The notes beneath the pieces are model-generated. The model had not been told where the DNA came from. It was given only the letters and a program-made list of their open reading frames with translations, and did no database searches. The translations under genes were made by a program, and so were the position numbers. From positions 727,478 through 791,477 of the forward strand of contig JACPSJ010000001.1 of assembly GCA_016193315.1 (NCBI GenBank): DNA of 64,000 nt, written 5' to 3'. How positions within the stretch are numbered: the first letter of the stretch is position 1; each line of letters begins with the position of its first letter. This stretch comes from Candidatus Kerfeldbacteria bacterium. Its GTDB lineage: Bacteria > Patescibacteriota > Patescibacteriia > SBBC01 > CAIJZX01. Positions 2,753-63,158 of the stretch are shown here, piece by piece.

Positions 2753-5185
<2,433 letters not shown>

Positions 5186-5433
5186 CTAAGTGTAGCACAA
5201 AAGCGGCTGATTGGGCAAGGCTCACGAACTTGACAGTATACCCTCTTTTTGCTACAGTCGCCAGGCCTCAAAAACGCCCGTTTGCACACTGGTTTCCACC
5301 CACGGCTTGAAAGGAGGGAGCGTCGTGAACAAACGACGAAAACGATTGGGCGCTCCCATGGATGGAAGCGAGCATGTGCTGGATCAGGCTCGGCGCGAGG
5401 CCCGGGAGCTTGCCCGGCGACCAGACCGTACCT

Positions 5434-6738
5434 TCAGGAGACTGCAGCGGGTTCGTCGACGTCTGACTCGCTCGACGTCAGCCGGAACTCGCCCGCTTGC
5501 ACGCGGGCGATAAAGGCACCGTCTCTCGTGCGGTAGAAATGGCTGAGTCCTTCCCGCACCACCTCCGCCTGGGCATCCTGGTGGAGGGTTTTTTGTTCTT
5601 GCGCCAGGCCGGCCAGATGCTGCTCCAACGCCAGCAGCTCATCCAAGACGGCGGGATCGGCCTGCCGGCCGGCCAACACCTTTCGTTCGAGTGCAATCTG
5701 CGCTGACAACTCTTCGACCACCATCCCCCGAAAGACGGCTGGATCCCGATACTGCGCCGCCAGCCGTTCGGCTTTCTCCAGCGTGGCGAAATCAGTACCC
5801 GGCTGGTCAGCCGCCGCATCAAGCAGCGCCAGGTGGCGATACATGCGTTCCGCGCGGCCCGGATCGATCGATAACACCCCGCGATAGAACCACTCCCCGG
5901 CCGCGAGATGCTCGGTGCCGTATTTCAGCTGATCGTGGGGTTGTTCAACCAGGCGCTGCAATTTTGCGGCGATCTGCTCTTCGCTGGCGCCGATGGTGAA
6001 ATCGATGCCAAGGCTAACCTGCCGCGCCTGCCCCTTGCCATCAACGAATTCCAGGCGTACGACCGCGTCCACGCCCCGGACATAGTCGTCAAACTTTGTG
6101 GTCGGGTGCGATTCCACGAGGGTCCGTTCACCGAACACGCGGGCTCGTTCCAACCACGGGAAGAAAGCCGACTCGAGCCGGTCCGTGACTTCAAAGAATC
6201 TTTGGCCCCGTTCTGATTGGGCCTGCCGCACTTGTTCCACCCGCCCGACCCGGGCCGCGTCCTCGAGCCGATACTCGATTGGGTGGCCGTCGCGACCGCG
6301 TGGGTCACGTTCCGTCGTCCACTCGCGAAATCGTGCTTCGGCTAGATGGTCAGCCCGAGCTGCCAGGCGACGATTTTGTTCAGCCAGGGAAACCGATCGG
6401 CGATCCTCCTGCAGGCGGCGATATTCCCGGAGCTGTTCCGCGATATTCCAGCGGAGATCGGCGGGTGCGATCGGCTTGGCCCGGAACCGCTTGCCTTCGG
6501 CCCGGGCCTTGTGGCCGGTTCGTTCCAAGACCTCGCCCAGGGTCCGGGCCTTATCCACGCCGGCTGCCTGCAGCTCCGATACCAGTCGGCGTTCAAAGCG
6601 CCCCAGCTCCTGATCGGGGATGGCTTCCAGATCCTTGGCTGAGTACCGTGCCCAGGCTTCAATCCCCTGTTCTGTCCAGGGCAGGGAAATCTCGGGGTGG
6701 ATAACCATGGTCTGAGAATTAACGGATTGTGGCGCCAA
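5434..6738 (-). CDS. hypothetical protein (Arg/Glu-rich, predicted coiled-coil)
   Basis: 434-aa ORF in the pheST-gyrB minus-strand array, with a 20-nt overlap with pheT. No motif I recognise. Confidence 0.45.
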   Translation of the reverse strand: MAPQSVNSQTMVIHPEISLPWTEQGIEAWARYSAKDLEAIPDQELGRFERRLVSELQAAGVDKARTLGEVLERTGHKARAEGKRFRAKPIAPADLRWNIAEQLREYRRLQEDRRSVSLAEQNRRLAARADHLAEARFREWTTERDPRGRDGHPIEYRLEDAARVGRVEQVRQAQSERGQRFFEVTDRLESAFFPWLERARVFGERTLVESHPTTKFDDYVRGVDAVVRLEFVDGKGQARQVSLGIDFTIGASEEQIAAKLQRLVEQPHDQLKYGTEHLAAGEWFYRGVLSIDPGRAERMYRHLALLDAAADQPGTDFATLEKAERLAAQYRDPAVFRGMVVEELSAQIALERKVLAGRQADPAVLDELLALEQHLAGLAQEQKTLHQDAQAEVVREGLSHFYRTRDGAFIARVQAGEFRLTSSESDVDEPAAVS

Positions 6739-8947
6739 GCTTCACCAGCCCATCTTTGATCGTGGCTTCGAGTTTGTCAACCTCGGCTTTCATTAAGGTC
6801 CGGTCGGGGGATTGAAAGATGAGTTCGAAGGTCAGGCTCTGCTGCTGCCCTTGCTGAAATTGATCGATTTTCCTAATGGTCGTCAGGAGTCCTCCGCCCA
6901 GCCGGCGCAATGTTTCATGAATACTCGGGGCCGATAACCGGCGGGGAATCCAAAGAGAAATATCTCTTTTGACTGACGGAAATTTCGATCGGGCCTGGTA
7001 TTTTTTCGGCCCCCACCCTTGGTTGATGTCGTCGAGATTGAATTCTACCCATTCGAGATCCCGTCCTTTCATTTGGTCGTGTGCGATCGGGCGCAGCAAA
7101 CCCGTCACTCCAAGCGCTTCCTGGAATAACCGTAGGTCCTCTTCAAGCCCAAGACCGCCCCCGGTTTTGTGACATCGCCCAAGGGCCAGAATCCATGGTT
7201 GAAGTTTCATCTCTTTGCCAAACACACGCCCGACCTCAAAAATCCTTGTATCGTGCCCCGCATCCGCGGCGGACATAAGAATACGGCGGATACCGGGTTT
7301 GAGGCTCAGCCGAAGGTATTGCTGCGTCTGATCAAGCGGGTTCGCGACTCTTACGTGTGCGTTGCGGTCTCCGGCATTGGAACTCTCGTCTCCACCGTAA
7401 TACGTATGGGTGATAACCTCAAGAAAACCTAAACGAGCCAGCGTGTCTCTCAGCTGATCCTTCAAGACAAGTGAGAATGGTAATGGTTTGGGGATCGACG
7501 GCGCCGTCGGCCACGACTCCAGAAGATGCTCGTATCCCACCATCCGCCCCACTTCATCCACGAGGTCCTCGGGAACGGTCGCGTCAAGCCGCCACTCCGG
7601 CACCGTGACCTTCCATGACTTCGACCCAGCTACCTTGAAACCAAGTTTGCCTAAGGTGGCTTTGCTTTTCGCGGCGGCAATGTTCGTCCCTAGGCGTTCC
7701 TTGACGTACTTTGGGTTGAAGGTGATGATTTTGGATTTTGACTTCACACCGCCAACCCGGACACTCCCCTGTTCCAACGTTCCGCCGCAAAGTTCAACGA
7801 TGAATGACGATGCAGCTTCGCTCGCTTCCTCCGGCAAACTTTGCCACAGTCCGCGTTCGAACCGTTTTGACGCTTCGGAGACTAAACCAAGCTTCCGCGA
7901 CGTCCGGCGGATCGAGATCGAATCAAAAATAGCCGCTTCGATGATGATGTCCTTGGTCGCATCGGACACCTCCGAATCGCGTCCGCCCATGATCCCGGCC
8001 AAGGCGGTCGGGCCGCGCGGGTCGGCGATGACGAGCATACTCGGATCCAGCCCGCGCGTCTGGGCATCAAGCGTGACGAGTTTCTCACCCACCCGCGCGG
8101 TCCGGACCACAATTCTTCCGTCTGACACTTTGGCGGCGTCGAAGGCATGGAGCGGCTGGCCGTACTCCAGCATGATGTAGTTCGTGGCGTCGACCACGGC
8201 GTTGATCGGCCGCATGCCGGCCGAGCGGAGACGTTGCTGTAACCAAGCGGGTGACGGACCGAGTGTTACGCCGTGGATGACTCGCGCCATGTAAACCGGA
8301 CATTGTTTGGGTGCCAGAACTTGGACCGCCACCGATCGCCCGGCCGGACGTTTGGCTCGGGGCGGTGCCGGTGAGGTTAGTTTTGGAGTCGTTCCGAGTA
8401 TGGTTCCTATTTCCCGCGCCAATCCTCGCACCGACAGCAAATCCGCCCGATTGGCCGGGATGGCCAGGTCGAGAATAACGTCCGACGCCCCGAGCACGCG
8501 CCCCAACGGCGTTCCGACTTTGATCGCGGTATCCAGAACCAGGACCCCGGCATGATTGTATCCTAGTCCAAGTTCATCCTCGGCGCAGATCATACCACCT
8601 GACTGAACGCCACGGATGGTTCGCGATTCGACGATTTGGCCGTTGGCGAGTTTCGCCCCCACCAATGCCACTGGGACCTTTTGGCCAACTGCGATATTCG
8701 GCGCGCCGCAGACGATCTGGCGTGGTCGGTCGCCGGGCTTGGTTACGACCTCGGCCAACTGCAGTTTGTCGGCATTCGGATGCGGCTTGATGGAAACGAT
8801 TTTGCCGACCACAAACTTCTCGAACTGACCGCGTCGATCAATCAGCTGCTCGACTTCCAGCCCGTGCATCATCAACGTCGCCACCAACTTCGGAGTCGGC
8901 GGCAAGCGGGGCAAGAATTCTTTCAGCCAAGAGAGGGGTAAGAGCAT
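6719..8947 (-). CDS. pheT: phenylalanine--tRNA ligase beta subunit
   Basis: 742 aa. N-terminal tRNA-binding OB fold (…KIVSIKPHPNADKLQLAEV…), B3/4 and B5 domains, and a C-terminal anticodon-binding domain. Confidence 0.9.
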   Translation of the reverse strand: MLLPLSWLKEFLPRLPPTPKLVATLMMHGLEVEQLIDRRGQFEKFVVGKIVSIKPHPNADKLQLAEVVTKPGDRPRQIVCGAPNIAVGQKVPVALVGAKLANGQIVESRTIRGVQSGGMICAEDELGLGYNHAGVLVLDTAIKVGTPLGRVLGASDVILDLAIPANRADLLSVRGLAREIGTILGTTPKLTSPAPPRAKRPAGRSVAVQVLAPKQCPVYMARVIHGVTLGPSPAWLQQRLRSAGMRPINAVVDATNYIMLEYGQPLHAFDAAKVSDGRIVVRTARVGEKLVTLDAQTRGLDPSMLVIADPRGPTALAGIMGGRDSEVSDATKDIIIEAAIFDSISIRRTSRKLGLVSEASKRFERGLWQSLPEEASEAASSFIVELCGGTLEQGSVRVGGVKSKSKIITFNPKYVKERLGTNIAAAKSKATLGKLGFKVAGSKSWKVTVPEWRLDATVPEDLVDEVGRMVGYEHLLESWPTAPSIPKPLPFSLVLKDQLRDTLARLGFLEVITHTYYGGDESSNAGDRNAHVRVANPLDQTQQYLRLSLKPGIRRILMSAADAGHDTRIFEVGRVFGKEMKLQPWILALGRCHKTGGGLGLEEDLRLFQEALGVTGLLRPIAHDQMKGRDLEWVEFNLDDINQGWGPKKYQARSKFPSVKRDISLWIPRRLSAPSIHETLRRLGGGLLTTIRKIDQFQQGQQQSLTFELIFQSPDRTLMKAEVDKLEATIKDGLVKLGATIR

Positions 8948-10030: not shown

Positions 10031-10419
10031 GGATTCCTGATGCGGCGGCTGTCGGTGGCGAGGTAGAAGAACTCAACCATCAGCACCAGCAGCGCCAGGA
10101 CGACCGCCGTCCACCACCGGAGCAGGCGAGCAGCCTGGAGGAGGAGGGCCAGGATTGTCCCGCTGCTGAGAATGATTGCTTCCCGGAGCGCAATCTCGAC
10201 CTGTCGAAAAAGTACTTTCTCTCGATCGAGCCAGTAGCGAACGAAAAATCCGAGCAGGGTAATCGTGCCGAGTAGAGCCAACCACAAGCTGAGATAGAAC
10301 AGGGCCGGAGCGACCGCGCCATTCGTGAATGGGTTGAGCGTCGTCAAGACCAGCCACCAAGCGGTCCACGACATGATCGTGCCGGCGCCAAGGATGATCA
10401 GGAATTTCGCCAACGACAT
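10027..10419 (-). CDS. small integral membrane protein (4 predicted TM helices)
   Basis: 130-aa hydrophobic ORF. ATGA overlap with the pheS start. Confidence 0.5.
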   Translation of the reverse strand: MSLAKFLIILGAGTIMSWTAWWLVLTTLNPFTNGAVAPALFYLSLWLALLGTITLLGFFVRYWLDREKVLFRQVEIALREAIILSSGTILALLLQAARLLRWWTAVVLALLVLMVEFFYLATDSRRIRNP

Positions 10420-10452
10420 ACGACCAGTTCAGTATAACGATTTTGCCAGCCC

Positions 10453-11064
10453 TTGACAACGGAAAACAGTCGGCGTAGACCAAAAACAGAAGCCCTTTCC
10501 ATCATCAACCCAAAGGAGGTGATCCTGGTGGTGCGGCTGGCTTCGTCTATTGAAACGCGCCGGTACAAGATGGCGTCGGCGATCGGCTTGGCCATCAGAG
10601 CCACCCAATCCCGCCCCGTCGTCAGGTGCCGCCGATTCCGGTTGCCGGCCTCGTTCCCAGTCGTCGAACGAGTGGACCATTTTGTCCGCCGCTTTGCTCG
10701 GCGGAATGGCATGACCGAGGACAACCTCATCCGGTTCAGCCTAGCCGTGGCCGAGGCGACCACCAACGCCGTCCAGCACGGACGCCAACCAGGACGGATC
10801 CAGTTCCTGTTTCTGGCCGTGGGGTTCTCGGGGCTGCGACATTTCAGTTGCTCGATCGACAACGCACCCCGCCTCAATCGAGCGCGACCAGCCCTGCCGC
10901 GAACCCAGCAGATCCGCCGACCGTTGACCCTTAGTACCGCGCCGCGTGGTCGGGGACGCCGGATCATCTATCAGATGGTGGACGGATTCCTGGCCATTCA
11001 TGTCCGGGCCCGCGGGCACGAATGCCGCCAGGTCGTCCTGACGCTGGATCAAATCGATCCGTAA
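10453..11064 (+). CDS. GHKL-type anti-sigma regulatory factor / serine kinase (RsbW/SpoIIAB-like), possibly degenerate
   Basis: N-box AVAEATTNAVQHG closely resembles RsbW AVSEACTNAVQHA. A G-rich box RGRGRRIIYQMVDGF lies downstream. The likely start is the internal M (MASAIG…). Arg-rich composition lowers confidence. Confidence 0.45.
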   Translation: MTTENSRRRPKTEALSIINPKEVILVVRLASSIETRRYKMASAIGLAIRATQSRPVVRCRRFRLPASFPVVERVDHFVRRFARRNGMTEDNLIRFSLAVAEATTNAVQHGRQPGRIQFLFLAVGFSGLRHFSCSIDNAPRLNRARPALPRTQQIRRPLTLSTAPRGRGRRIIYQMVDGFLAIHVRARGHECRQVVLTLDQIDP

Positions 11065-11150
11065 CCCCTGCCTAGCCGGCGGGGGATTTTTCCGTGGTTG
11101 GCGCCTTGACAACAGACGACCAACAGCGCTAGGTTGTACGGGTTGTTTGC

Positions 11151-11298
11151 GGCGGGGTGCTCGAGAGGATGATGAGATGCCGACTACGCGGGTCGGTAGG
11201 TCCCAGAGCCACGATGCAGAATCTCAAGCTGTGTCCGCAATGCGGAATGCCTCCTTGAGAATCTGGGGCCCATGGGTTCGAATCCCATCCCCGCCGCC
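11151..11298 (+). tRNA. tRNA-like gene with ~115 nt of extra internal structured sequence (isotype unresolved)
   Basis: Perfect 7-bp acceptor GGCGGGG (11151-57) / CCCCGCC (11289-95). Canonical T-arm ATGGG-TTCGAAT-CCCAT directly 5' of the 3' acceptor strand. Discriminator G, then CC. D-arm-like CTCG-AGAGGATGA-TGAG. The interior holds a 6-bp hairpin (gccgac…gtcggt) and a 12-bp hairpin (cagaatctcaag…cttgagaatctg) not explainable by a 76-nt cloverleaf. Confidence 0.3.
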
Positions 11299-11447
11299 TC
11301 GTATGCCCACCAACATCCTGATCACGTTCCTTTAGCGCCTGTCGCTCAGCTTGGAGAGTCACACCTTGCCAAGGTGGTTGCCGGAGTTTTCCACCCCGCA
11401 CCCATCGAGGTGCGGTGGACGTTCCTCTCAGGCGCTTCAACCTGTCA

Positions 11448-11625
11448 GCTCGGGTAGCTTAGCCCGGTAGAGCGTCTGATTCGTAATCAGATGGTCGCCG
11501 GGTCGCGGCGGGTTGAGGAACAAAGCAGATGAACTGCTTCATCTGCGTCCCGACGCGACGGGCGTCGCCATGTTTCGAAGGAACGGCGACGCCCAGGGCC
11601 ATGCCAAATCCGGCCCCGAGCTCCA
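11448..11625 (+). tRNA. tRNA-Thr(CGU) gene interrupted in the T-loop by a ~100-nt insertion
   Basis: Acceptor GCTCGGG (11448-54) pairs perfectly with CCCGAGC (11615-21), followed by discriminator T and encoded CCA. D-arm GCTT-AGCCCGGTA-GAGC. Anticodon arm TCTGA-TTCGTAA-TCAGA (anticodon CGT). Variable loop TGGTC. T-stem 5' strand GCCGG (11497-501). Then ~100 nt of hairpin-rich sequence. Then T-loop remainder CAAAT plus T-stem 3' strand CCGGC (11610-14) abutting the acceptor 3' strand. Confidence 0.5.
11524..11552 (+). repeat. 27-nt hairpin repeat, copy 1 (aagcagatgaactgcttcatctgcgtcc)
   Basis: 9-bp perfect hairpin gcagatgaa/ttcatctgc with loop ctg, inside the tRNA-Thr T-loop insert. Near-identical copy at 34841-34869. 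Both copies are followed by a second hairpin whose loop contains atgYttcgaagga. Confidence 0.5.
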
Positions 11626-11711
11626 AGTCTTACCCCCCATCACTCGATGTGGGATTTTTTTTATCGTCCGAAACTCGCAATCTTTTGGCAGCCGCGCTAC
11701 GCACCGAACCC

Positions 11712-12209
11712 CTATCGACAAATACCTTTAACCTCCATCACCTCAGCGATCAGCGTACGGCGCCGATATATGATTTCATGCTTTTGGATCGAACTGAATG
11801 CCCGCGCGAGGGCGATTTCTGAAACTTCATAGCGAAGCCCCGCGAAGCTTGCGTCACCTTCAATGAGGCTGGCTTTCTTTCGTTGCCACCGCTGTCGACG
11901 CGCCCACCGCAAGAATTTGTAAACCTGCTCGCTGTCTTCTGATTTCACGACATATCCCCAGTAGTGCGTCTGCCAACACGGTCGCGCCCGATACCAAACT
12001 GTCGTTACGCCGCTGAAAGGATTTGACCCAACCCACACATCCTCCCAAAACCACCGTCTGGTCCGTGGTCTGCCGCCGCGAGGATATTGCAAGATATCTA
12101 CACCCGGCCTGGTTTTCCTTTTCAGGCTTCGCGCCTCGGCATCATAACCATTGTGTTTTGCTTCCTCCATGAAACGTATGATTTGCCTGTAGGTCGGATA
12201 CTTGTTCAT
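11712..12209 (-). CDS. hypothetical protein
   Basis: 165-aa ORF (…WFWEDVWVGSNPFSGVTTVWYRARPCWQTHYWGYV…), moderately AT-richer than surroundings. Lies between the interrupted tRNA cluster and the helicase-nuclease. Confidence 0.4.
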   Translation of the reverse strand: MNKYPTYRQIIRFMEEAKHNGYDAEARSLKRKTRPGVDILQYPRGGRPRTRRWFWEDVWVGSNPFSGVTTVWYRARPCWQTHYWGYVVKSEDSEQVYKFLRWARRQRWQRKKASLIEGDASFAGLRYEVSEIALARAFSSIQKHEIIYRRRTLIAEVMEVKGICR

Positions 12210-32549: not shown

Positions 32550-33818
32550 TTAGACGGCGCGCACTATGGGTATAAATGGTTTCGGATCTTTGAACGGACC
32601 GAGCATCGCCAACCGCATGGCCGTCGGCCGGAATAATTGGCGGGCCACTCGCTGAACATCGCGAGCCGTGACTTTCATAATCCTGCCCATTACCTGATCG
32701 GGTGTTTCAATCTTCGGATGGAATAACGCTTGGCGTCCGTACCAGGAAGCGATGGCATCCGAATCTTCAAGATCGAGAATCATCTTGCCGCGGAGGAATT
32801 CCTTGGTTCGCTTTAGCTCGGACGAAGGCACCGGTGTCGACTTCACCTTTCGCAATTCGCTCGTCATGACGCGCAGCGCTTCGGCCACTCGACTCTTTTC
32901 CAGGCCAGCTTGGACCATAAAGGTGCCAGTATCTTCATAGGGATTCACCGAGGCGCTGACGGAATACGCCAAGCCACGGCGTTCGCGGACCTGGATGAAA
33001 AGTCGCGAGCTCATGTTACCGCCGAGGAGAACGCTCAGGACGCTGGCCGCCGGTAGCCGTCGATCTGTGTAACGGAAACCTTTGACCCCGACCGCCAGCT
33101 GCACCTGCTCCGAATCTTTCCATTTCAGCTTGACCGGAGACGTCGCGGCCGGGCGATAGGGCCGGGCCACACTCTGGTGAGGCTTACTCGGCAAGGAACG
33201 GAAAAAACGCCGCAGCTCCGTGTCCAGTCCATGTCCGATTCTCCCGGCCACCACCACCCACATGTTGCGCGCCTGGTAGTGCCGGTCACGGAATTGAATC
33301 AGGCTGGTGCGGCTGACGCGACGGATAACCTCTCGCGGGCCAGCAATATTCCAACCGAGCGGATGGTGGTCGCCGAACACGGTGGTTTCGAACAGGTCAT
33401 CAATCGACATAACCGGGTTGTCCTCGTAGAGATTGATTTCTTCAATAATCACGCCTCGTTCGCGTTCAATTTCTTTGGGCGCGAAGAGTGAATTTTGCAA
33501 CATATCGCTGACTACGTCGAGCGCTAGTTCGGTGTGCTCGTGATTGATCTTGACATAGTACCCGGTCCAGTCTTTACTGGTAAAGGCATTATACCGGGCG
33601 CCGACGCCATCGAGCAGGCGGGAGATGGCCAAGGTCGACGGCCGCCGCTTCGTGCCTTTGAACATCAAATGTTCGATAAAATGGGCGATGCCGTTGGTGC
33701 GGCGCGTCTCGTAGCGCGAACCGACTTTGGTAAAAACAAAGACCGTCACCGCTTTCGTATCATGGAGCGGGACGAGCAGCAAGCGCAACCCGTTCGGCAA
33801 CGTCTCGACTTTCATCAC
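32550..33818 (-). CDS. M16 family zinc peptidase (pitrilysin-like)
   Basis: Inverted zinc motif HFIEH near N-terminus (GIAHFIEHLMFKGT). 422 aa. Confidence 0.85.
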   Translation of the reverse strand: MMKVETLPNGLRLLLVPLHDTKAVTVFVFTKVGSRYETRRTNGIAHFIEHLMFKGTKRRPSTLAISRLLDGVGARYNAFTSKDWTGYYVKINHEHTELALDVVSDMLQNSLFAPKEIERERGVIIEEINLYEDNPVMSIDDLFETTVFGDHHPLGWNIAGPREVIRRVSRTSLIQFRDRHYQARNMWVVVAGRIGHGLDTELRRFFRSLPSKPHQSVARPYRPAATSPVKLKWKDSEQVQLAVGVKGFRYTDRRLPAASVLSVLLGGNMSSRLFIQVRERRGLAYSVSASVNPYEDTGTFMVQAGLEKSRVAEALRVMTSELRKVKSTPVPSSELKRTKEFLRGKMILDLEDSDAIASWYGRQALFHPKIETPDQVMGRIMKVTARDVQRVARQLFRPTAMRLAMLGPFKDPKPFIPIVRAV

Positions 33819-34492
33819 GGCGTGTCCTTGATGATGAAAACTTTTTGTTGGCTGACCAGATAGCTGGTCAGTTCGAAATTCTGGCCGCTCGACGTATAGC
33901 CGTAGTAATGAGTCGGATGTTCGGGGTCGATCGGTTCGTTGAAGCTGCCGCCGTAAAAATCCTTCAGCGTCTGGTAGAGAACGTCGGCGGTGCCGCGATC
34001 AAGTCGGATCTGTTTGCCGCCGGTTGAGGGGTAAGCGCGTTTGACGGCGTAGTACGCTTTCAGTCGGTATTTCAAGCTGATCAAATCTTGCTGGCGAAAA
34101 ATATCGGTTAGGCTAGAGGATTGGTCGACCAACCGCTCCTTGTCACGCTGCTCCTGGCGGTTCAGCTCGGCTTGCGTGGCGGAGTCGATGGCTAAGTAGT
34201 CGCCGCTGTTGAGGGCATTGCCATTGCCCAAGATACCGTTAACGCTGAGATTGGCGTTGCTGGTATTCTTGTTGATTACAGCGTTGGCATTCGGCACCAC
34301 CGTGGAGGGGATTTTTGACTCGTTGGCGGCCTTCTCGGCCTGCTGTTGTCCCTGCTTCAAACCGATCACCAGCCCGACGCTCAAACCGACCACGAAGATC
34401 ACCGGGTAGAGCAGGAGAGTAATAATTTGGGCCGGCGTCAGCTTTCGTGATTTTTCCGGCAACGCGGTGGCGGGGTCGATCAGGACAGGCAT
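33815..34492 (-). CDS. hypothetical membrane-anchored/secreted protein (Asn-rich)
   Basis: N-terminal TM helix, then an N/S/T-rich linker and a C-terminal domain. 4-nt overlap with the M16 peptidase. Confidence 0.45.
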   Translation of the reverse strand: MPVLIDPATALPEKSRKLTPAQIITLLLYPVIFVVGLSVGLVIGLKQGQQQAEKAANESKIPSTVVPNANAVINKNTSNANLSVNGILGNGNALNSGDYLAIDSATQAELNRQEQRDKERLVDQSSSLTDIFRQQDLISLKYRLKAYYAVKRAYPSTGGKQIRLDRGTADVLYQTLKDFYGGSFNEPIDPEHPTHYYGYTSSGQNFELTSYLVSQQKVFIIKDTP

Positions 34493-34554
34493 GGTTGTTG
34501 GTCTTACTGAAAACTAGTCTAGCATATTTAGCTACTTTCCCCTAAGGCCGCGGC

Positions 34555-34930
34555 GAGCGATCGGGAGCCGCGACAGAAAAATACCTGGTCGCGAGGAACG
34601 TTTGCAAGACTGGGTCTGGTGGGGTCGGGGCGGCATTACGCGGAGCGGGATAGCGAGTAAATTGCTTTACTCGCGGCCGCCGAGACGGGCCGAGCTCTGT
34701 TTCGGAGGAATAGCGAGGCCCAAGAGGCAACGAGCAAACGGACGATCGACACACAAGGGAAGGGAGGCAGTCCCGACCGCGAAAGCGCGTCGGGACGGTC
34801 GGAACGGGCCGTAGACCGGCAGCCGAAGGCCAAGCAGATGAACTGCTTCATGTGCGTCCGGTCGGAGGTGGGCCGGCCGATGCTTCGAAGGAGCCGGACG
34901 GCTCAGGGATACCATCGGTTTCCCTCCGAG
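34555..34930. ncRNA. candidate structured non-coding RNA (unclassified)
   Basis: ~390 nt with no convincing ORF between two co-oriented genes. Very GC-rich with many perfect hairpins (e.g. gtcccgaccgcgaaagcgcgtcgggac; cgcgagtaaattgctttactcgcg). Contains copy 2 of the 27-nt hairpin repeat. Confidence 0.25.
34841..34869 (+). repeat. 27-nt hairpin repeat, copy 2 (aagcagatgaactgcttcatgtgcgtcc)
   Basis: 27/28 identity with 11524-11552. Followed by a second hairpin with loop atgcttcgaagga, as in copy 1. Confidence 0.5.
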
Positions 34931-34931
34931 A

Positions 34932-36674
34932 CTACCACGACCCCCCACCACCCCCGCCAAAACCGCCGCCGGAGAATCCACCGCCACCGAACCCAGACGA
35001 ACCGCTGGCCGCCGGCGGGGCGAAGCTGCGGAGCGTGCGAGCGGAAAAACTGTTCATGGCCGACCACAACATCAGACTGTTGAAACTACCAGGGTATGAT
35101 CCGTGATACCACGATGGCGGCGGCTGGTTGAGGCCGGCGAAAGCCTGACTCCACTTCTCGGCCACGCCAAAGGCCATGGCGTACGGCAAGTACTGTTCAA
35201 AGATATTCTGGCGCTCCTGCCATTGTAAACGATACTTCTCGGCCTTTTCCAGAAACAGCTTGAACCCGCGGGCGTGCCAGAAGGCAGTCACGCCTTTTGA
35301 GGTGCGCTTCGGCATGACGCCGGCGAAAACGATGATCAGCAGCCCGATGATGGCCAGGCCGAGCTGCGGGAAAAGCGTAAACGCCACCACCAGCCCGAGT
35401 ACCAGCACGCCGCCGCCGACCAAGCCGGCTCGCACGCGCGCTTGTGACGGATCAGTCAGAAAGTACCCTTGTTCGGCTACCTGGCGGTAGAGATCCGATT
35501 GGATGGCCCGGACGTCGTCGGCGAAGGCGCCCTTTAGTTCAGACAGCCGGACGGAATCGCCGTCGGCAAACAGACCTGATAGCAGTTGGCGTTCATGTGC
35601 CCGGAGCGGTGGGTCGTCTTTTCGTTTACGCCGGCGAAGTTCGTAATCAGTTGACGCGGCCAAACCGAGCAGTTTCTTCTCTTTTGTTTCGGTAATGTCC
35701 ACGTAACCGCGAACGGCCAAGTCGATGATGGTGGCGACCACGTCGCGTTGATTGGCGCGTTCGTCAAAGAGGACGCCCATCTCACCCGGCGTCATCCCGG
35801 GCGGCGGGTCGTACTGGGCGATGACCGTGCCCGGCCCGGCCGGATCGCGACCCTGCCGCTTCCAATATCGCCACAGCCAGACCGCCAAGATCAGCGGCAA
35901 GGCAATATCGCCGATGATGACGGCCGGTCCTGACCGGAAAACAGCCCGCCATCCCGGCCCCAAACCGCCGCCCTGCCGAAGCTGGTCGTAGTTGCCTGGT
36001 TTCGTCACCACTCCGGTGGGCCAGCCGACGACCACGGTCAGGTAGTCGTTGCTAGCGAATGTGGCGCTCGAGATATCGGTGGTGAATCGGCACTCTTCAC
36101 TCTTCGACCCCACGGCGCCGGTGAAACAGCGAGACTGCAATTCATTGATGGGTACCTGTCCCGGCAACCTGACGGTGGCGTCGACTTGCCGAATCGGCAC
36201 TTCCCAGTCCGAACCGGTGACGTTCCAGTAGAGTTCGTCGTAGTCGTCAAAAAAGTTAACCGCCGCCAGCGCGCGGTAGCGAAGGGAATACGTGTGTTCG
36301 CCGCTGATCGTGCGATCAGGATCGCCTATTTTCCAGCGAACCGTGTCGGCGAATGACGATTGTTCGTACGGCACCGATCCCCCATCAAGAGTAATCTCAT
36401 CCAGTTCAATCGGCACGCTTATCCGATCAGCTCGATCTGTGGCGTAACGAAACGGTAGGTCACGGAAAATACCGTGCTTCGGCACAAAAAAATTGACCTC
36501 GATCGTTTCCGTGACATCAATCGAAGCGTCGGACTGAACGGTGACCGCTGAATGAAAGCGACTGATCGCCCAGTCGGCGGCCGTGGCCGGCCGAGCTATC
36601 AGGAATCCGACGACCGCGGTCAGAACAAAGTAACTACGCCAAGCGCTCACGGAGATAGTCGACCAGTTCTCCAA
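34932..36674 (-). CDS. DUF2207 domain-containing membrane protein with C-terminal Gly-rich tail
   Basis: N-terminal signal/TM, large extracytoplasmic domain, TM helices around LPLILAVWLW and VLVLGLVVAF, C-terminal GFGGGGFSGGGFGGGGGGSW. Confidence 0.65.
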   Translation of the reverse strand: MENWSTISVSAWRSYFVLTAVVGFLIARPATAADWAISRFHSAVTVQSDASIDVTETIEVNFFVPKHGIFRDLPFRYATDRADRISVPIELDEITLDGGSVPYEQSSFADTVRWKIGDPDRTISGEHTYSLRYRALAAVNFFDDYDELYWNVTGSDWEVPIRQVDATVRLPGQVPINELQSRCFTGAVGSKSEECRFTTDISSATFASNDYLTVVVGWPTGVVTKPGNYDQLRQGGGLGPGWRAVFRSGPAVIIGDIALPLILAVWLWRYWKRQGRDPAGPGTVIAQYDPPPGMTPGEMGVLFDERANQRDVVATIIDLAVRGYVDITETKEKKLLGLAASTDYELRRRKRKDDPPLRAHERQLLSGLFADGDSVRLSELKGAFADDVRAIQSDLYRQVAEQGYFLTDPSQARVRAGLVGGGVLVLGLVVAFTLFPQLGLAIIGLLIIVFAGVMPKRTSKGVTAFWHARGFKLFLEKAEKYRLQWQERQNIFEQYLPYAMAFGVAEKWSQAFAGLNQPPPSWYHGSYPGSFNSLMLWSAMNSFSARTLRSFAPPAASGSSGFGGGGFSGGGFGGGGGGSW

Positions 36675-60056: not shown

Positions 60057-60460
60057 GGGGATGTACAACAGTTGATCGATCGTTGACAGTCCATCGCGCT
60101 CATGCCGACACGCCCACGCCGTCGTTACTGTGTGGGAACATGAGAAGTGCCAATACACTTTTCAGCAGGCTGAAGACCGCGGTCGCTTCGGCGTTCCGCG
60201 CGCCTTTGCTTGCGCCTGCCTTTGCCTAAACAGTAAGGGCCATCCGTCCGGTTGACTCCGACTAGACCGATCGCGGGTGTCACCTCAGTCGGACCAGTGG
60301 TGAAACGTTCAGACTCATCACCGCGTACCTTCTGAACACCGTCGTCAGGATTCTTGTCCGTTCTTGACCTGATGGCGCGTACTGAGAACGGGCTGAGCAT
60401 GGAAGCCAGCGTGATGGATGGTCCGTCGAGACGCGGGTGCAAGACCCGCCATCTCCACCA
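60057..60460 (+). ncRNA. ssrA: tmRNA (transfer-messenger RNA)
   Basis: 3' end GCGGG-TGCAAGA-CCCGC (T-arm) + CATCTCC + A + CCA (60458-60). 5' GGGGATG forms a 7-bp acceptor with G3:U70 wobble. 5' uugacaguccauc pairs with gauggUccguc just before the T-arm (helix 2). In-frame Ala-rich tag candidate …AFRAPLLAPAFA-stop (stop at ~60227-29). smpB lies 600 nt upstream. Confidence 0.7.
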
Positions 60461-60622
60461 GGTAAAATGCCGCCGCAGGCGGCATCACCTGGCAAGCCAC
60501 GGCGTGGCGAAGCCAGGTGTTCCGCGCAGCGGAATTACCTGGTGGCCAGGTGGTCGCGTTGCGCGACTTTACCTGGCAAAGTATCAAAGTATGTATGTGG
60601 CTTGGGCTAAGTCCATTTCACG

Positions 60623-60880
60623 ATGTTTTACGTTTACCTCATTGAAAGTCAGCTCGATGGCTACTGGTACATCGGCTTCACGACTCACCTCAATAAGCGC
60701 GTTGCCAAACATAACCGCGGCGAAGTGACTTCGACTTCTTCTCGAAAGCCGTGGCGCCTAATTTACGCCGAGTTCTATCGGAACAAGTCTGACGCACTGG
60801 GTCGCGAAAAGTTTCTAAAGTGCGGCGCCGGCCTGCGTTTTCTAAAAAAGCAACTCCGCCACCACCTTAACGGCCGTTGA
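60623..60880 (+). CDS. GIY-YIG nuclease family protein
   Basis: MFYVYLIESQLDGYWYIGFTTHLNKRVAKHN…WRLIYAEFY matches the GIY-YIG core (GIY…YIG…R…H/N…E). Confidence 0.6.
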   Translation: MFYVYLIESQLDGYWYIGFTTHLNKRVAKHNRGEVTSTSSRKPWRLIYAEFYRNKSDALGREKFLKCGAGLRFLKKQLRHHLNGR

Positions 60881-62908: not shown

Positions 62909-63083
62909 ACGGGTATCCAAAGACAGCTTACAGCCTTGTGGCTGAGGGTTGTTTGTAGTGGGCCCGAACCCGCACCAGGCCCTTGACTTGATCGGGGGTG
63001 CGCAGCAATCTCTCCCCCGTGACCCCGTATGGTTCTCGCTTCGCTCGAACCATGGGGCAGGCAAGAGGGCTCGTTTCGCTCTG

Positions 63084-63158
63084 CGGACCCAAGGGGATTT
63101 GAACCCCTGATCTTCTCCGTGACAGGGAGACGTGTTAACCGGGCTACACTATGGGTCC
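63084..63158 (-). tRNA. tRNA-Asp(GUC)
   Basis: Minus strand: GGACCCA-TA-GTGT-AGCCCGGTTA-ACAC-G-TCTCC-CTGTCAC-GGAGA-AGATC-AGGGG-TTCAAAT-CCCCT-TGGGTCC-G. CCA not encoded. Coordinates ±2. Confidence 0.7.

Follow-up and report, generated by a model that had tools for sequence, protein, structure and literature searches.

Two copies of a small structured module in a lineage-specific spacer of a Kerfeldbacteria genome and a third copy within the T-loop of a tRNA-Thr gene

The DUF2207 spacer and its coding potential

The 64,000-nucleotide (nt) stretch of DNA analyzed here (hereafter, the window) comes from the metagenome-assembled genome of a Candidatus Kerfeldbacteria bacterium, a member of the Candidate Phyla Radiation (CPR)/Parcubacteria with a small genome. 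Our subject is the long spacer between the genes for a DUF2207 membrane protein and a 225-aa protein (Table 1), and in particular a ~97-nt hairpin module that is present twice in this spacer and a third time within an interrupted tRNA-Thr(CGU) gene of the same window. The 225-aa protein is 100% identical to NCBI HYY50_04105, located on a contig of 857 kb, and the spacer is reproduced base for base in L001, an independent assembly made from a different run.

A first-pass annotation, made from the sequence alone, had described the interval as non-coding, highly structured, and a candidate RNA of ~390 nt. The non-coding interval is real, although its extent is slightly larger than had been proposed (439 nt). 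Open reading frames (ORFs) of 70–106 aa are present in the spacer on both strands; none of them matched a Pfam family at E ≤ 1, and their codon-usage scores ranged from −0.34 to +0.03, versus 0.23–0.72 for 13 real genes of the window. These ORFs fall within DNA that is absent from relatives. A protein-coding spacer was thus ruled out on the Pfam and codon-usage results, in agreement with the earlier view that no credible ORF exists there.

The same annotation had judged the interval far too long and far too structured for a spacer in this genome, and each statement holds in part. Gaps between genes in the window have a median length of 42 nt, but others reach 270–620 nt (on a rough ORF map). 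The fold z-score of the interval is −2.8 on the minus strand and −2.2 on the plus strand, with 1 of 100 shuffles as stable, and the excess of structure is therefore moderate. The hairpins that had been pointed out are all present as claimed, including one with a GAAA loop; the latter is unique sequence outside the repeated module, with no similar copy elsewhere. When 34350–35100 was scanned with Rfam 15 on both strands, no family was found at gathering scores or at E ≤ 10, and neither a sigma-70-like promoter nor an intrinsic terminator was found on either strand of 34300–35100.

Comparison with relatives at the spacer locus

The comparison set comprised ~62 kb of loci from Kerfeldbacteria relatives and four loci from other CPR genomes. 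Gene order around the spacer is kept in the relatives (class II aminoacyl-tRNA synthetase, DUF2207, gap, 225-aa gene, M16 peptidase, AI-2E transporter, and TP_methylase), and their 225-aa proteins are 61–67% identical to that of the window. However, their syntenic gaps measure 218 nt (L002), 97 nt (L003/L004), and 53 nt (L005), which speaks against a single ~390-nt RNA at this site. The first-pass annotation had named a non-conserved spacer without covariation as grounds for rejecting its proposal, and the first half of this is what the relatives show. Only ~45 nt next to the ATG of the 225-aa gene align across the four syntenic loci (alignment A7), and this part corresponds to a promoter and 5′ leader: an extended −10 element (TG at 34524–34523 and TAGACT at 34521–34516) is followed by the leader AGTAAGACCAAC, and T-TG-TA---T and gAATAAa.ACCAA are invariant in the alignment. 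Because nothing beyond this promoter and leader aligns and the gaps of the relatives are short, the remaining ~390 nt represent extra DNA of this lineage.

The extra DNA is bracketed by the direct repeats TTTCCCC (34534–34540) and TTTCCCT (34919–34925), and excising the DNA between them leaves a ~55-nt spacer that resembles the 53 nt of L005. The repeat may be a target duplication, at a level near chance (rough chance estimate ~0.05). A purine run, GGGAAGGGAGGC (34756–34768), is able to pair with either repeat. The same DUF2207/225-aa spacer of L002 holds an AT-rich imperfect palindrome of ~190 nt (3783–3975, z = −3.25) that is unrelated in sequence, and the site seems to collect structured insertions.

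Anatomy and constraint of the ~97-nt module

A sensitive BLAST search of the spacer against the window returned two matches, both within 11500–11598: positions 34832–34908 are 78% identical over 79 nt (E = 5e-10), and positions 34622–34722 are 68% identical over 102 nt (E = 4e-6). The first-pass annotation had recognized part of this repeat as the second copy of a 27-nt hairpin module, and indeed 34832–34864 is 91% identical to 11523–11555. The three copies (A and B in the spacer, copy 1 in the tRNA gene) align across ~100 nt with a common architecture, and homology among them ends at the module boundary. The covariance model R1, run with filters off, found exactly three modules in the window (91–107 bits versus 9.9 bits for the next best match), and hairpin-1 and the loop signature TGYTTCGRAGGA likewise co-occur exactly three times, always on the plus strand and 45–47 nt apart, while a module search of the fetched loci of Kerfeldbacteria relatives (~62 kb) found none. 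Copies A and B lie in direct orientation with a period of 181 nt and are the only repeated or conserved units inside the interval, where one RNA had been proposed.

Each module consists, in order, of an outer stem, an A-rich internal loop, hairpin-1 (9 bp with a YUGC loop), a linker containing GACGG, and P2, a 10-bp GC stem with the cap GYUUC-GRA-GGARY. The outer stem of copy A is formed by 34624–34634 and 34676–34686; its hairpin-1 (34653–34674) is a perfect 9-bp stem, GCGAGTAAA-TTGC-TTTACTCGC, with four compensatory pairs, and its P2 is a two-tier hairpin at 34687–34721. The corresponding parts of copy B are an outer stem of GACCGG (34817–34822) and CCGGTC (34858–34863), a 9-bp hairpin-1 with one G/G mismatch (34834–34855), and a two-tier P2 (34870–34904).

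The window copies are only 52–64% identical, and 94% of their stem cells still pair. Nine of the 24 pairs have changed on both sides, a number that none of 500 shuffles reached, and slid controls pair at only 34–53%; with the modules of four more genomes added (see below), 12 of the 24 pairs have changed on both sides across the seven sequences. These statistics are indicative rather than definitive, as the sample is small (seven members, three of them paralogues in one genome); in addition, the alignment (A6) had been fitted to the model. Each of the five wobble cells reads as G·U on the plus strand, with no A·C among them, which favors a folded plus strand, antisense to both flanking genes. 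Together, the compensatory changes and the G·U bias appear to show that the copies, or the lineages from which they came, were selected to fold as one strand. Such single-strand folding fits an element acting at the RNA level (an intron, an intervening sequence (IVS), or a processed RNA) and also fits an element with hairpins of single-stranded DNA. On their own, copies A and B fold modestly beyond shuffles (z ~ −2). The idea of a structured RNA at this locus is therefore retained for the modules, which show RNA-like structure with compensatory change, but not for the interval, which is missing from the syntenic loci of the relatives.

The ~85-nt stretches preceding each module (the GAAA-loop hairpin is part of this DNA) and the tails resemble neither each other, nor the tRNA-Thr exons, nor any other fetched sequence; a tandem duplication of the whole ~181-nt unit was rejected on this dissimilarity. 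Three other origins were also considered and set aside. Differences between the copies are not adenine-specific by inspection of alignment A2, as opposed to the template and variable repeats of a diversity-generating retroelement. Derivation from a tRNA was suggested by AAGCAGATG, common to the module and the anticodon arm of a tRNA-Lys in L029, but the similarity is not significant. For a known RNA family, Rfam gave nothing, and the short resemblances of AGAUGAA and AGUCCGG to motifs of RNase P, signal recognition particle RNA, and tmRNA are backed by no model.

A module copy within the T-loop of a tRNA-Thr gene

Copy 1 makes up the bulk of a ~101-nt insertion (about 11505–11605) within the 7-nt T-loop of a tRNA-Thr(CGU) gene. 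On its 5′ side lie a perfect acceptor 5′ strand, the D arm, the anticodon arm (CGU), and the 5′ strand of the T-stem, and on its 3′ side follow AAAT, the 3′ strand of the T-stem, the exact acceptor complement, the discriminator, and CCA (acceptor GCTCGGG/CCCGAGC; T-stem GCCGG at 11497–11501 and CCGGC at 11610–11614; discriminator T; CCA at 11623–11625). With about 11505–11605 removed, ARAGORN calls tRNA-Thr(CGU), which it did in 177 deletion variants, whereas it misses the intact region, and the Rfam tRNA model scores the latter at a sub-threshold 26 bits (all else in 11050–11750 being noise). The interrupted gene folds with a z-score of −6.5 and keeps its acceptor stem, and the insert itself folds as two hairpins of ~19 and 15 bp. 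No target duplication is evident at the T-loop junctions (GTC before and AAAT after the insert). The syntenic tRNA-Thr(CGU) genes of L029 and L030, next to helicases 75–76% identical to the neighboring one in the window, are uninterrupted. The interruption is not an assembly artefact, because an independent assembly (L033) has the identical gene. Another independent assembly, L034 (SRR12113422), breaks off at the border of the tRNA operon, 12 nt past the DUF5680 gene, which would fit assembly breaks caused by repeats near the module.

The tRNA-Thr gene belongs to an operon of three tRNA-like genes (Table 1), none of which is detected by ARAGORN or Rfam at default thresholds; the sole tRNA detected in the window is a tRNA-Asp (63083–63158). 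As both tools miss these tRNAs, tRNA counts for such genomes are too low. In the tRNA-Gly(GCC)-like gene, a hairpin splits the T-loop as TTT^CGTT, and once it is removed ARAGORN reports tRNA-Gly at a slightly relaxed threshold (-ps90), still with a poor T-stem. By our own placement of the loops, the tRNA-Gly and tRNA-Thr inserts share one position, as both follow the third base of the T-loop. The 146-nt tRNA-like gene carries ~60 extra nt in the D-loop and the anticodon/variable region, and single deletions in it gave ambiguous ARAGORN calls. For the spacer, a scan of 59,427 single-deletion variants yielded no tRNA, compared to the 177 calls of the tRNA-Thr control, and copies A and B are therefore not within recognizable tRNAs.

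Other unusual tRNA-like genes were seen in the relatives. L030 has, at 6498–6573 (minus strand), a tRNA with an 8-nt anticodon loop, CACTAACC, that ARAGORN lists as '???(ctaa)' and that could carry a CUA, amber-reading anticodon; it adjoins a tRNA-Thr(CGT) with a 12-nt anticodon loop (6586–6663, minus strand). The first genes of the syntenic operon in L029 (~3665–3790, minus strand) and L030 (~6770–7030, minus strand) are long tRNA-like RNAs that no tool detects, with closing stems of 8–10 bp, a D-arm-like GTAGYTCAATATA, and, in one of them, a canonical T-arm. Upstream of the operon in the window, a 189-aa ORF (10398–10967, minus strand, codon score −0.13) overlaps the ORF at 10453–11064 (plus strand), for which a gene caller gives a 178-aa HATPase_c_2 product and which a terminator follows (11065–11085); the plus-strand ORF is probably the real gene. 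The window also contains a tmRNA (60057–60460), with SmpB encoded nearby according to gene calls on L032, and just downstream of it a gene for an 85-aa GIY-YIG nuclease (~60620–60880, plus strand).

Table 1. Features of the window that bear on the spacer and the module (positions are those of the window)
Feature	Position	Strand	Details
tRNA operon, three tRNA-like genes	11108–11661	+	Promoter TTGACA-N17-TAGGTT at 11108; hairpin and T8 terminator at 11636–11661
146-nt tRNA-like gene	11151–11296	+	Acceptor GGCGGGG/CCCCGCC, perfect 7 bp; T-arm ATGGG-TTCGAAT-CCCAT canonical
tRNA-Gly(GCC)-like gene	11335–11436	+	30-nt T-loop hairpin at 11390–11419, TCCACCCCGCACCCATCGAGGTGCGGTGGA
Interrupted tRNA-Thr(CGU) gene	11448–11625	+	Last gene of the tRNA operon
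Module copy 1	11503–11598	+	Best-formed copy; covariance model R1 106.6 bits
225-aa protein gene	33815–34492	−	No Pfam family; ATG bounds the spacer
Whole spacer	34493–34931		439 nt; GC 0.61 versus 0.57 for the window; between the DUF2207 and 225-aa genes
Promoter and 5′ leader of the 225-aa gene	34493–34535	−	Conserved in alignment A7
Lineage-specific extra DNA	34536–34931		~390 nt; missing from the syntenic gaps of relatives
Two short GC hairpins	34549–34572, 34569–34593		CGCGGC..GCCGCG and CGCGAC..GTCGCG; unique stretch before module A
Module copy A	34631–34725	+	R1 90.9 bits, E = 4e-19; BLAST match to copy 1
82-aa ORF, judged spurious	34667–34915	−	From one gene caller (called in L001); codon score −0.03
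GAAA-loop hairpin	34770–34796		GTCCCGAC-CGC-GAAA-GCG-C-GTCGGGAC; between modules A and B
Module copy B	34812–34908	+	R1 94.6 bits, E = 5e-20; BLAST match to copy 1
DUF2207 membrane protein gene	34932–36674	−	Pfam DUF2207 and DUF2207_C

Module relatives in other CPR genomes

Scans of genomes and metagenomes used one exact 20-mer of the module, AAGCAGATGAACTGCTTCAT. Among 185,579 species-representative genomes, it occurs in four CPR genomes: L009 (Parcubacteria), L010, L011, and L015 (another Kerfeldbacteria); other genome matches were chance matches in coding sequence, and the metagenome scan gave only chance coding matches, mostly on Bacteroidaceae-like contigs. The four fetched loci have a GC content of 35–47%, each of them has hairpin-1 with an identical or near-identical sequence, and R1 recovers all four modules at 18–32 bits. 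One stem position of hairpin-1 is either C or G, and each of these two variants is present in more than one genome. An element that spread would account for this distribution more readily than vertical descent would.

Two of the four motifs, those of L009 and L011, start 1–3 nt after a complete tRNA-Glu of the same strand, and each opens a very stable ~140-nt RNA with three hairpins (z = −9.3 and −6.5). The modules of the four genomes gave nothing with Rfam at E ≤ 0.1 (for L010, nothing meaningful at E ≤ 10), an ARAGORN deletion scan beside them revealed no interrupted tRNA, and no protein family is shared among the module neighborhoods. A phage or viral origin was also rejected, as an 18-mer had no match in IMG/VR and the L009 RNA had none among the INPHARED phages.

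The L010 locus has several features of its own. An IS200-like TnpA gene (4825–5250, minus strand) lies within 4779–5356, flanked by CCCTGCAGCAGAGACTGCAGGG and, at the opposite end, by CCTGCGGCAGAGACCGCAGG in two copies, and appears to split a host ORF. The end hairpins of this IS200 TnpA, CCTGCRGCAGAGACYGCAGG, differ from those of the module, and no Y1_Tnp homologue was found in the window by tblastn; a link to IS200/IS605 was rejected on both counts. Rfam also identifies a LOOT RNA (2077–2195, 76 bits), which is located upstream of the module at a distance of 3.7 kb. At 5855–6165 (plus strand), GGCUCCGCGAAG precedes the hairpin, and its perfect 12-nt complement, CUUCGCGGAGCU, follows ~290 nt downstream and then a U-run, which suggests a closed RNA of ~310 nt, without Rfam match, in this AT-rich genome.

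Interpretation of the spacer and its alternatives

We tentatively favor the reading that the spacer holds two carried copies of a small structured insertion element, constrained as plus-strand RNA or as single-stranded DNA. An insertion element is supported by the precise landing in the T-loop, the three copies in unrelated contexts within 64 kb, the empty sites of the relatives, the sporadic distribution among CPR genomes, and the near-invariance of hairpin-1. In this scenario, an ancestral promoter-bearing gap of ~55 nt would have grown by ~390 nt of inserted DNA in this lineage, whose recognizable content would be two long-diverged ~97-nt copies in direct orientation. The element would behave as an insertion unit rather than as an ordinary gene, given that its third copy interrupts a T-loop and that the relatives have the tRNA concerned in uninterrupted form, and its near-invariant hairpin-1 would most simply be a recognition site for a protein. 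Because copies A and B run antisense to the flanking genes and lack both a promoter and a terminator, the spacer most likely carries them as members of a selfish or intron-like element, and they would not be dedicated regulators of these genes.

Several points weigh against this reading. The copy number was taken from 64 kb of a genome of ~857 kb, and the module family consists of few members (seven sequences, three of them paralogues in one genome). By inspection, no terminal inverted repeats occur at the module ends (GTCGCGGCGGG... and ...CCCAGGG) or at the ends of the ~390-nt insert; there is no convincing target-site duplication, the only candidate being the 6–7-nt TTTCCC(C/T) repeat; and no transposase, integrase, or homing-endonuclease gene is tied to the module in its six contexts. 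The two ~85-nt flanking stretches carry hairpins that an inserted module leaves unexplained. Furthermore, diverged copies that keep their structure resemble functional RNAs under purifying selection rather than idle relics, and the three-hairpin unit after tRNA-Glu in L009 and L011 looks like a real small RNA (sRNA) gene.

These last points lead to an explanation that we consider doubtful but worth serious attention, in which A and B belong, as functional paralogues, to a CPR-specific sRNA family, trans-acting or protein-binding, expressed from the plus strand antisense to the DUF2207–225-aa unit, with tRNA processing setting the ends of the tRNA-embedded and tRNA-adjacent copies. Structure held despite 36–48% divergence, strand-specific wobble pairs, the highly stable homologues that L009 and L011 have right beside a same-strand tRNA-Glu, the position of copy 1 within an operon bounded by a promoter and a terminator, and a loop (UGYUUCGRAGGA) conserved at fixed spacing in 3 of 3 window copies all speak for such a family. 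Nevertheless, the plus strand of A and B has no promoter or terminator in 34300–35100, their fold z-scores are only about −2, the spacer is missing from the syntenic loci of relatives, the exact 20-mer is sporadic (four CPR species of 185,579 species genomes), and gene duplication leaves the precise T-loop landing unexplained. The T-loop copy is equally unaccounted for by a cis role of the hairpins in the minus-strand mRNA, be it as a REP/BIME-like 3′ stabilizer, an RNase III site, or a leaky terminator or insulator separating DUF2207 from a downstream gene with its own promoter, and the wobble pairs would become A·C mismatches on that strand; moreover, the 53–97-nt gaps of relatives lack such hairpins. 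We regard this cis role as improbable, even though the region lies in the 3′ untranslated region of DUF2207, directly upstream of the conserved promoter and with no canonical terminator found after DUF2207, the corresponding site of L002 is occupied by a long palindrome of unrelated sequence, a short U-rich run follows hairpin-1 on the opposite strand in several copies, copy 1 scored as terminator-like on its opposite strand, and 4 of the 6 module contexts lie between convergent transcription units.

The near match between the A-to-B period (181 nt) and the interrupted tRNA-Thr gene (178 nt) raises the question of whether the spacer could instead be two decayed tandem copies of tRNA-Thr plus module, that is, tRNA pseudogenes; the end of unit B (...CCTCCGAGACTACCA) recalls that of tRNA-Thr (...CCCCGAGCTCCA), and the unit can be closed by a 10-bp long-range helix. 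This seems very improbable and is already weakly refuted by the deletion scan, in which all 59,427 spacer variants failed where the control succeeded 177 times, and by the exon-like parts, which have z-scores of −0.5 to 1.2 and are equaled by 150–787 of 1000 shuffles; full decay of the exons beside a structured insert would also be odd. A single structured RNA of ~390–440 nt, along the lines of the first-pass annotation and either new or a diverged housekeeping RNA (RNase P RNA, for example), is scarcely tenable and largely refuted already: its length falls within the range of RNase P RNA or tmRNA, it has many hairpins, and the z-score of the whole interval is −2.2 to −2.8, but Rfam found nothing at E ≤ 10 on either strand, the interval is missing where relatives keep synteny, its interior is made up of two repeat units with a counterpart outside the spacer, neither promoter nor terminator was found, and the tmRNA is already accounted for at 60057–60460.

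The carried-element reading, if true, adds an unannotated structured element family to the CPR bacteria, whose non-coding content is almost unexplored and whose stable-RNA genes are already known for unusual insertions. An extension of it, which we think unlikely, is that the module represents a new class of intervening element specific to CPR/Patescibacteria, a self-folding RNA insert that would live in tRNA T-loops and be removed or tolerated via a protein-dependent pathway that recognizes hairpin-1 and is not known from bacterial tRNAs, with the spacer copies as dispersed members; if so, a bacterium would process tRNA introns or IVS other than group I introns. Given the interrupted tRNA genes, this reduced genome either tolerates the loss of the tRNAs or is able to excise or tolerate their T-loop inserts. 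In a full-text literature search, neither T-loop inserts in CPR tRNAs nor CPR RNase P RNA nor this hairpin sequence turned up in any paper.

Comparison with known systems

Bacterial small structured intergenic repeats and miniature inverted-repeat transposable elements (MITEs) include REP/BIME, Correia/NEMIS, BOX, RUP, and ERIC. Similar to these, the module is ~100 nt long, hairpin-forming, multi-copy, and intergenic, it occurs in unrelated contexts with empty sites in relatives, as expected for a mobile repeat, and it is compatible with co-transcription into neighboring RNAs. In contrast to MITEs and REP sequences, it lacks terminal inverted repeats, a clear target duplication, and an associated transposase or RAYT gene; its copies are 52–64% identical yet compensated and strand-biased, one of them sits in a tRNA T-loop, and the 22-nt hairpin is near-identical across CPR genomes. 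Another group of interest is the tRNA-linked sRNAs (for example, the 3′ETS-leuZ type), which are released by cleavage of tRNA precursors or trailers. The L009 and L011 RNAs, 1–3 nt past tRNA-Glu, and copy 1 inside a tRNA operon are reminiscent of these, whereas the spacer copies have no adjoining tRNA and are antisense to local transcription. The helix-preserving compensatory changes expected of a structured RNA were found in the module, but the marks of an independent sRNA gene are missing from the spacer copies, which have no promoter or terminator and are not present at syntenic loci.

Insertions in stable RNAs offer further parallels. The IVS of bacterial rRNA genes take the place of a hairpin loop and form a long duplex that RNase III cuts. 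Among CPR 16S rRNA genes, 31% have insertions of >10 bp (PMC9698310, review). Like these and rRNA IVS, the module is a compact, self-folding insert in the hairpin loop of a stable RNA, sporadic and lineage-specific, in a CPR host; unlike rRNA IVS, it resides in a tRNA T-loop, folds into two adjacent hairpins instead of a single extended helix that replaces a loop, and has copies outside RNA genes. Archaeal non-canonical tRNA introns have a bulge-helix-bulge motif, are spliced by EndA, and are thought to spread between tRNA genes (PMC4033280, PMC4090602). The insert resembles them in its size (~100 nt or less), its position away from the anticodon, and the related copies at several sites, but its host is bacterial, and no bulge-helix-bulge was recognized by eye at the junctions or in the minimum-free-energy fold. 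Bacterial group I tRNA introns lie in the anticodon loop, mostly at 37/38, with a catalytic core of ~100 nt within about ten helices (PMC4033280). As with these, a bacterial tRNA gene is interrupted, although the 101-nt insert folds into two hairpins, occupies the T-loop, and has no match to Intron_gpI at E ≤ 10. A review of tRNA gene diversity lists bacteria with group I introns only, mostly at 37/38 (PMC4033280). Compared with an additional repeat family, it is more consequential that a bacterial tRNA-Thr, and apparently the neighboring tRNA-Gly as well, is interrupted in the T-loop by an insert that is not a group I intron.

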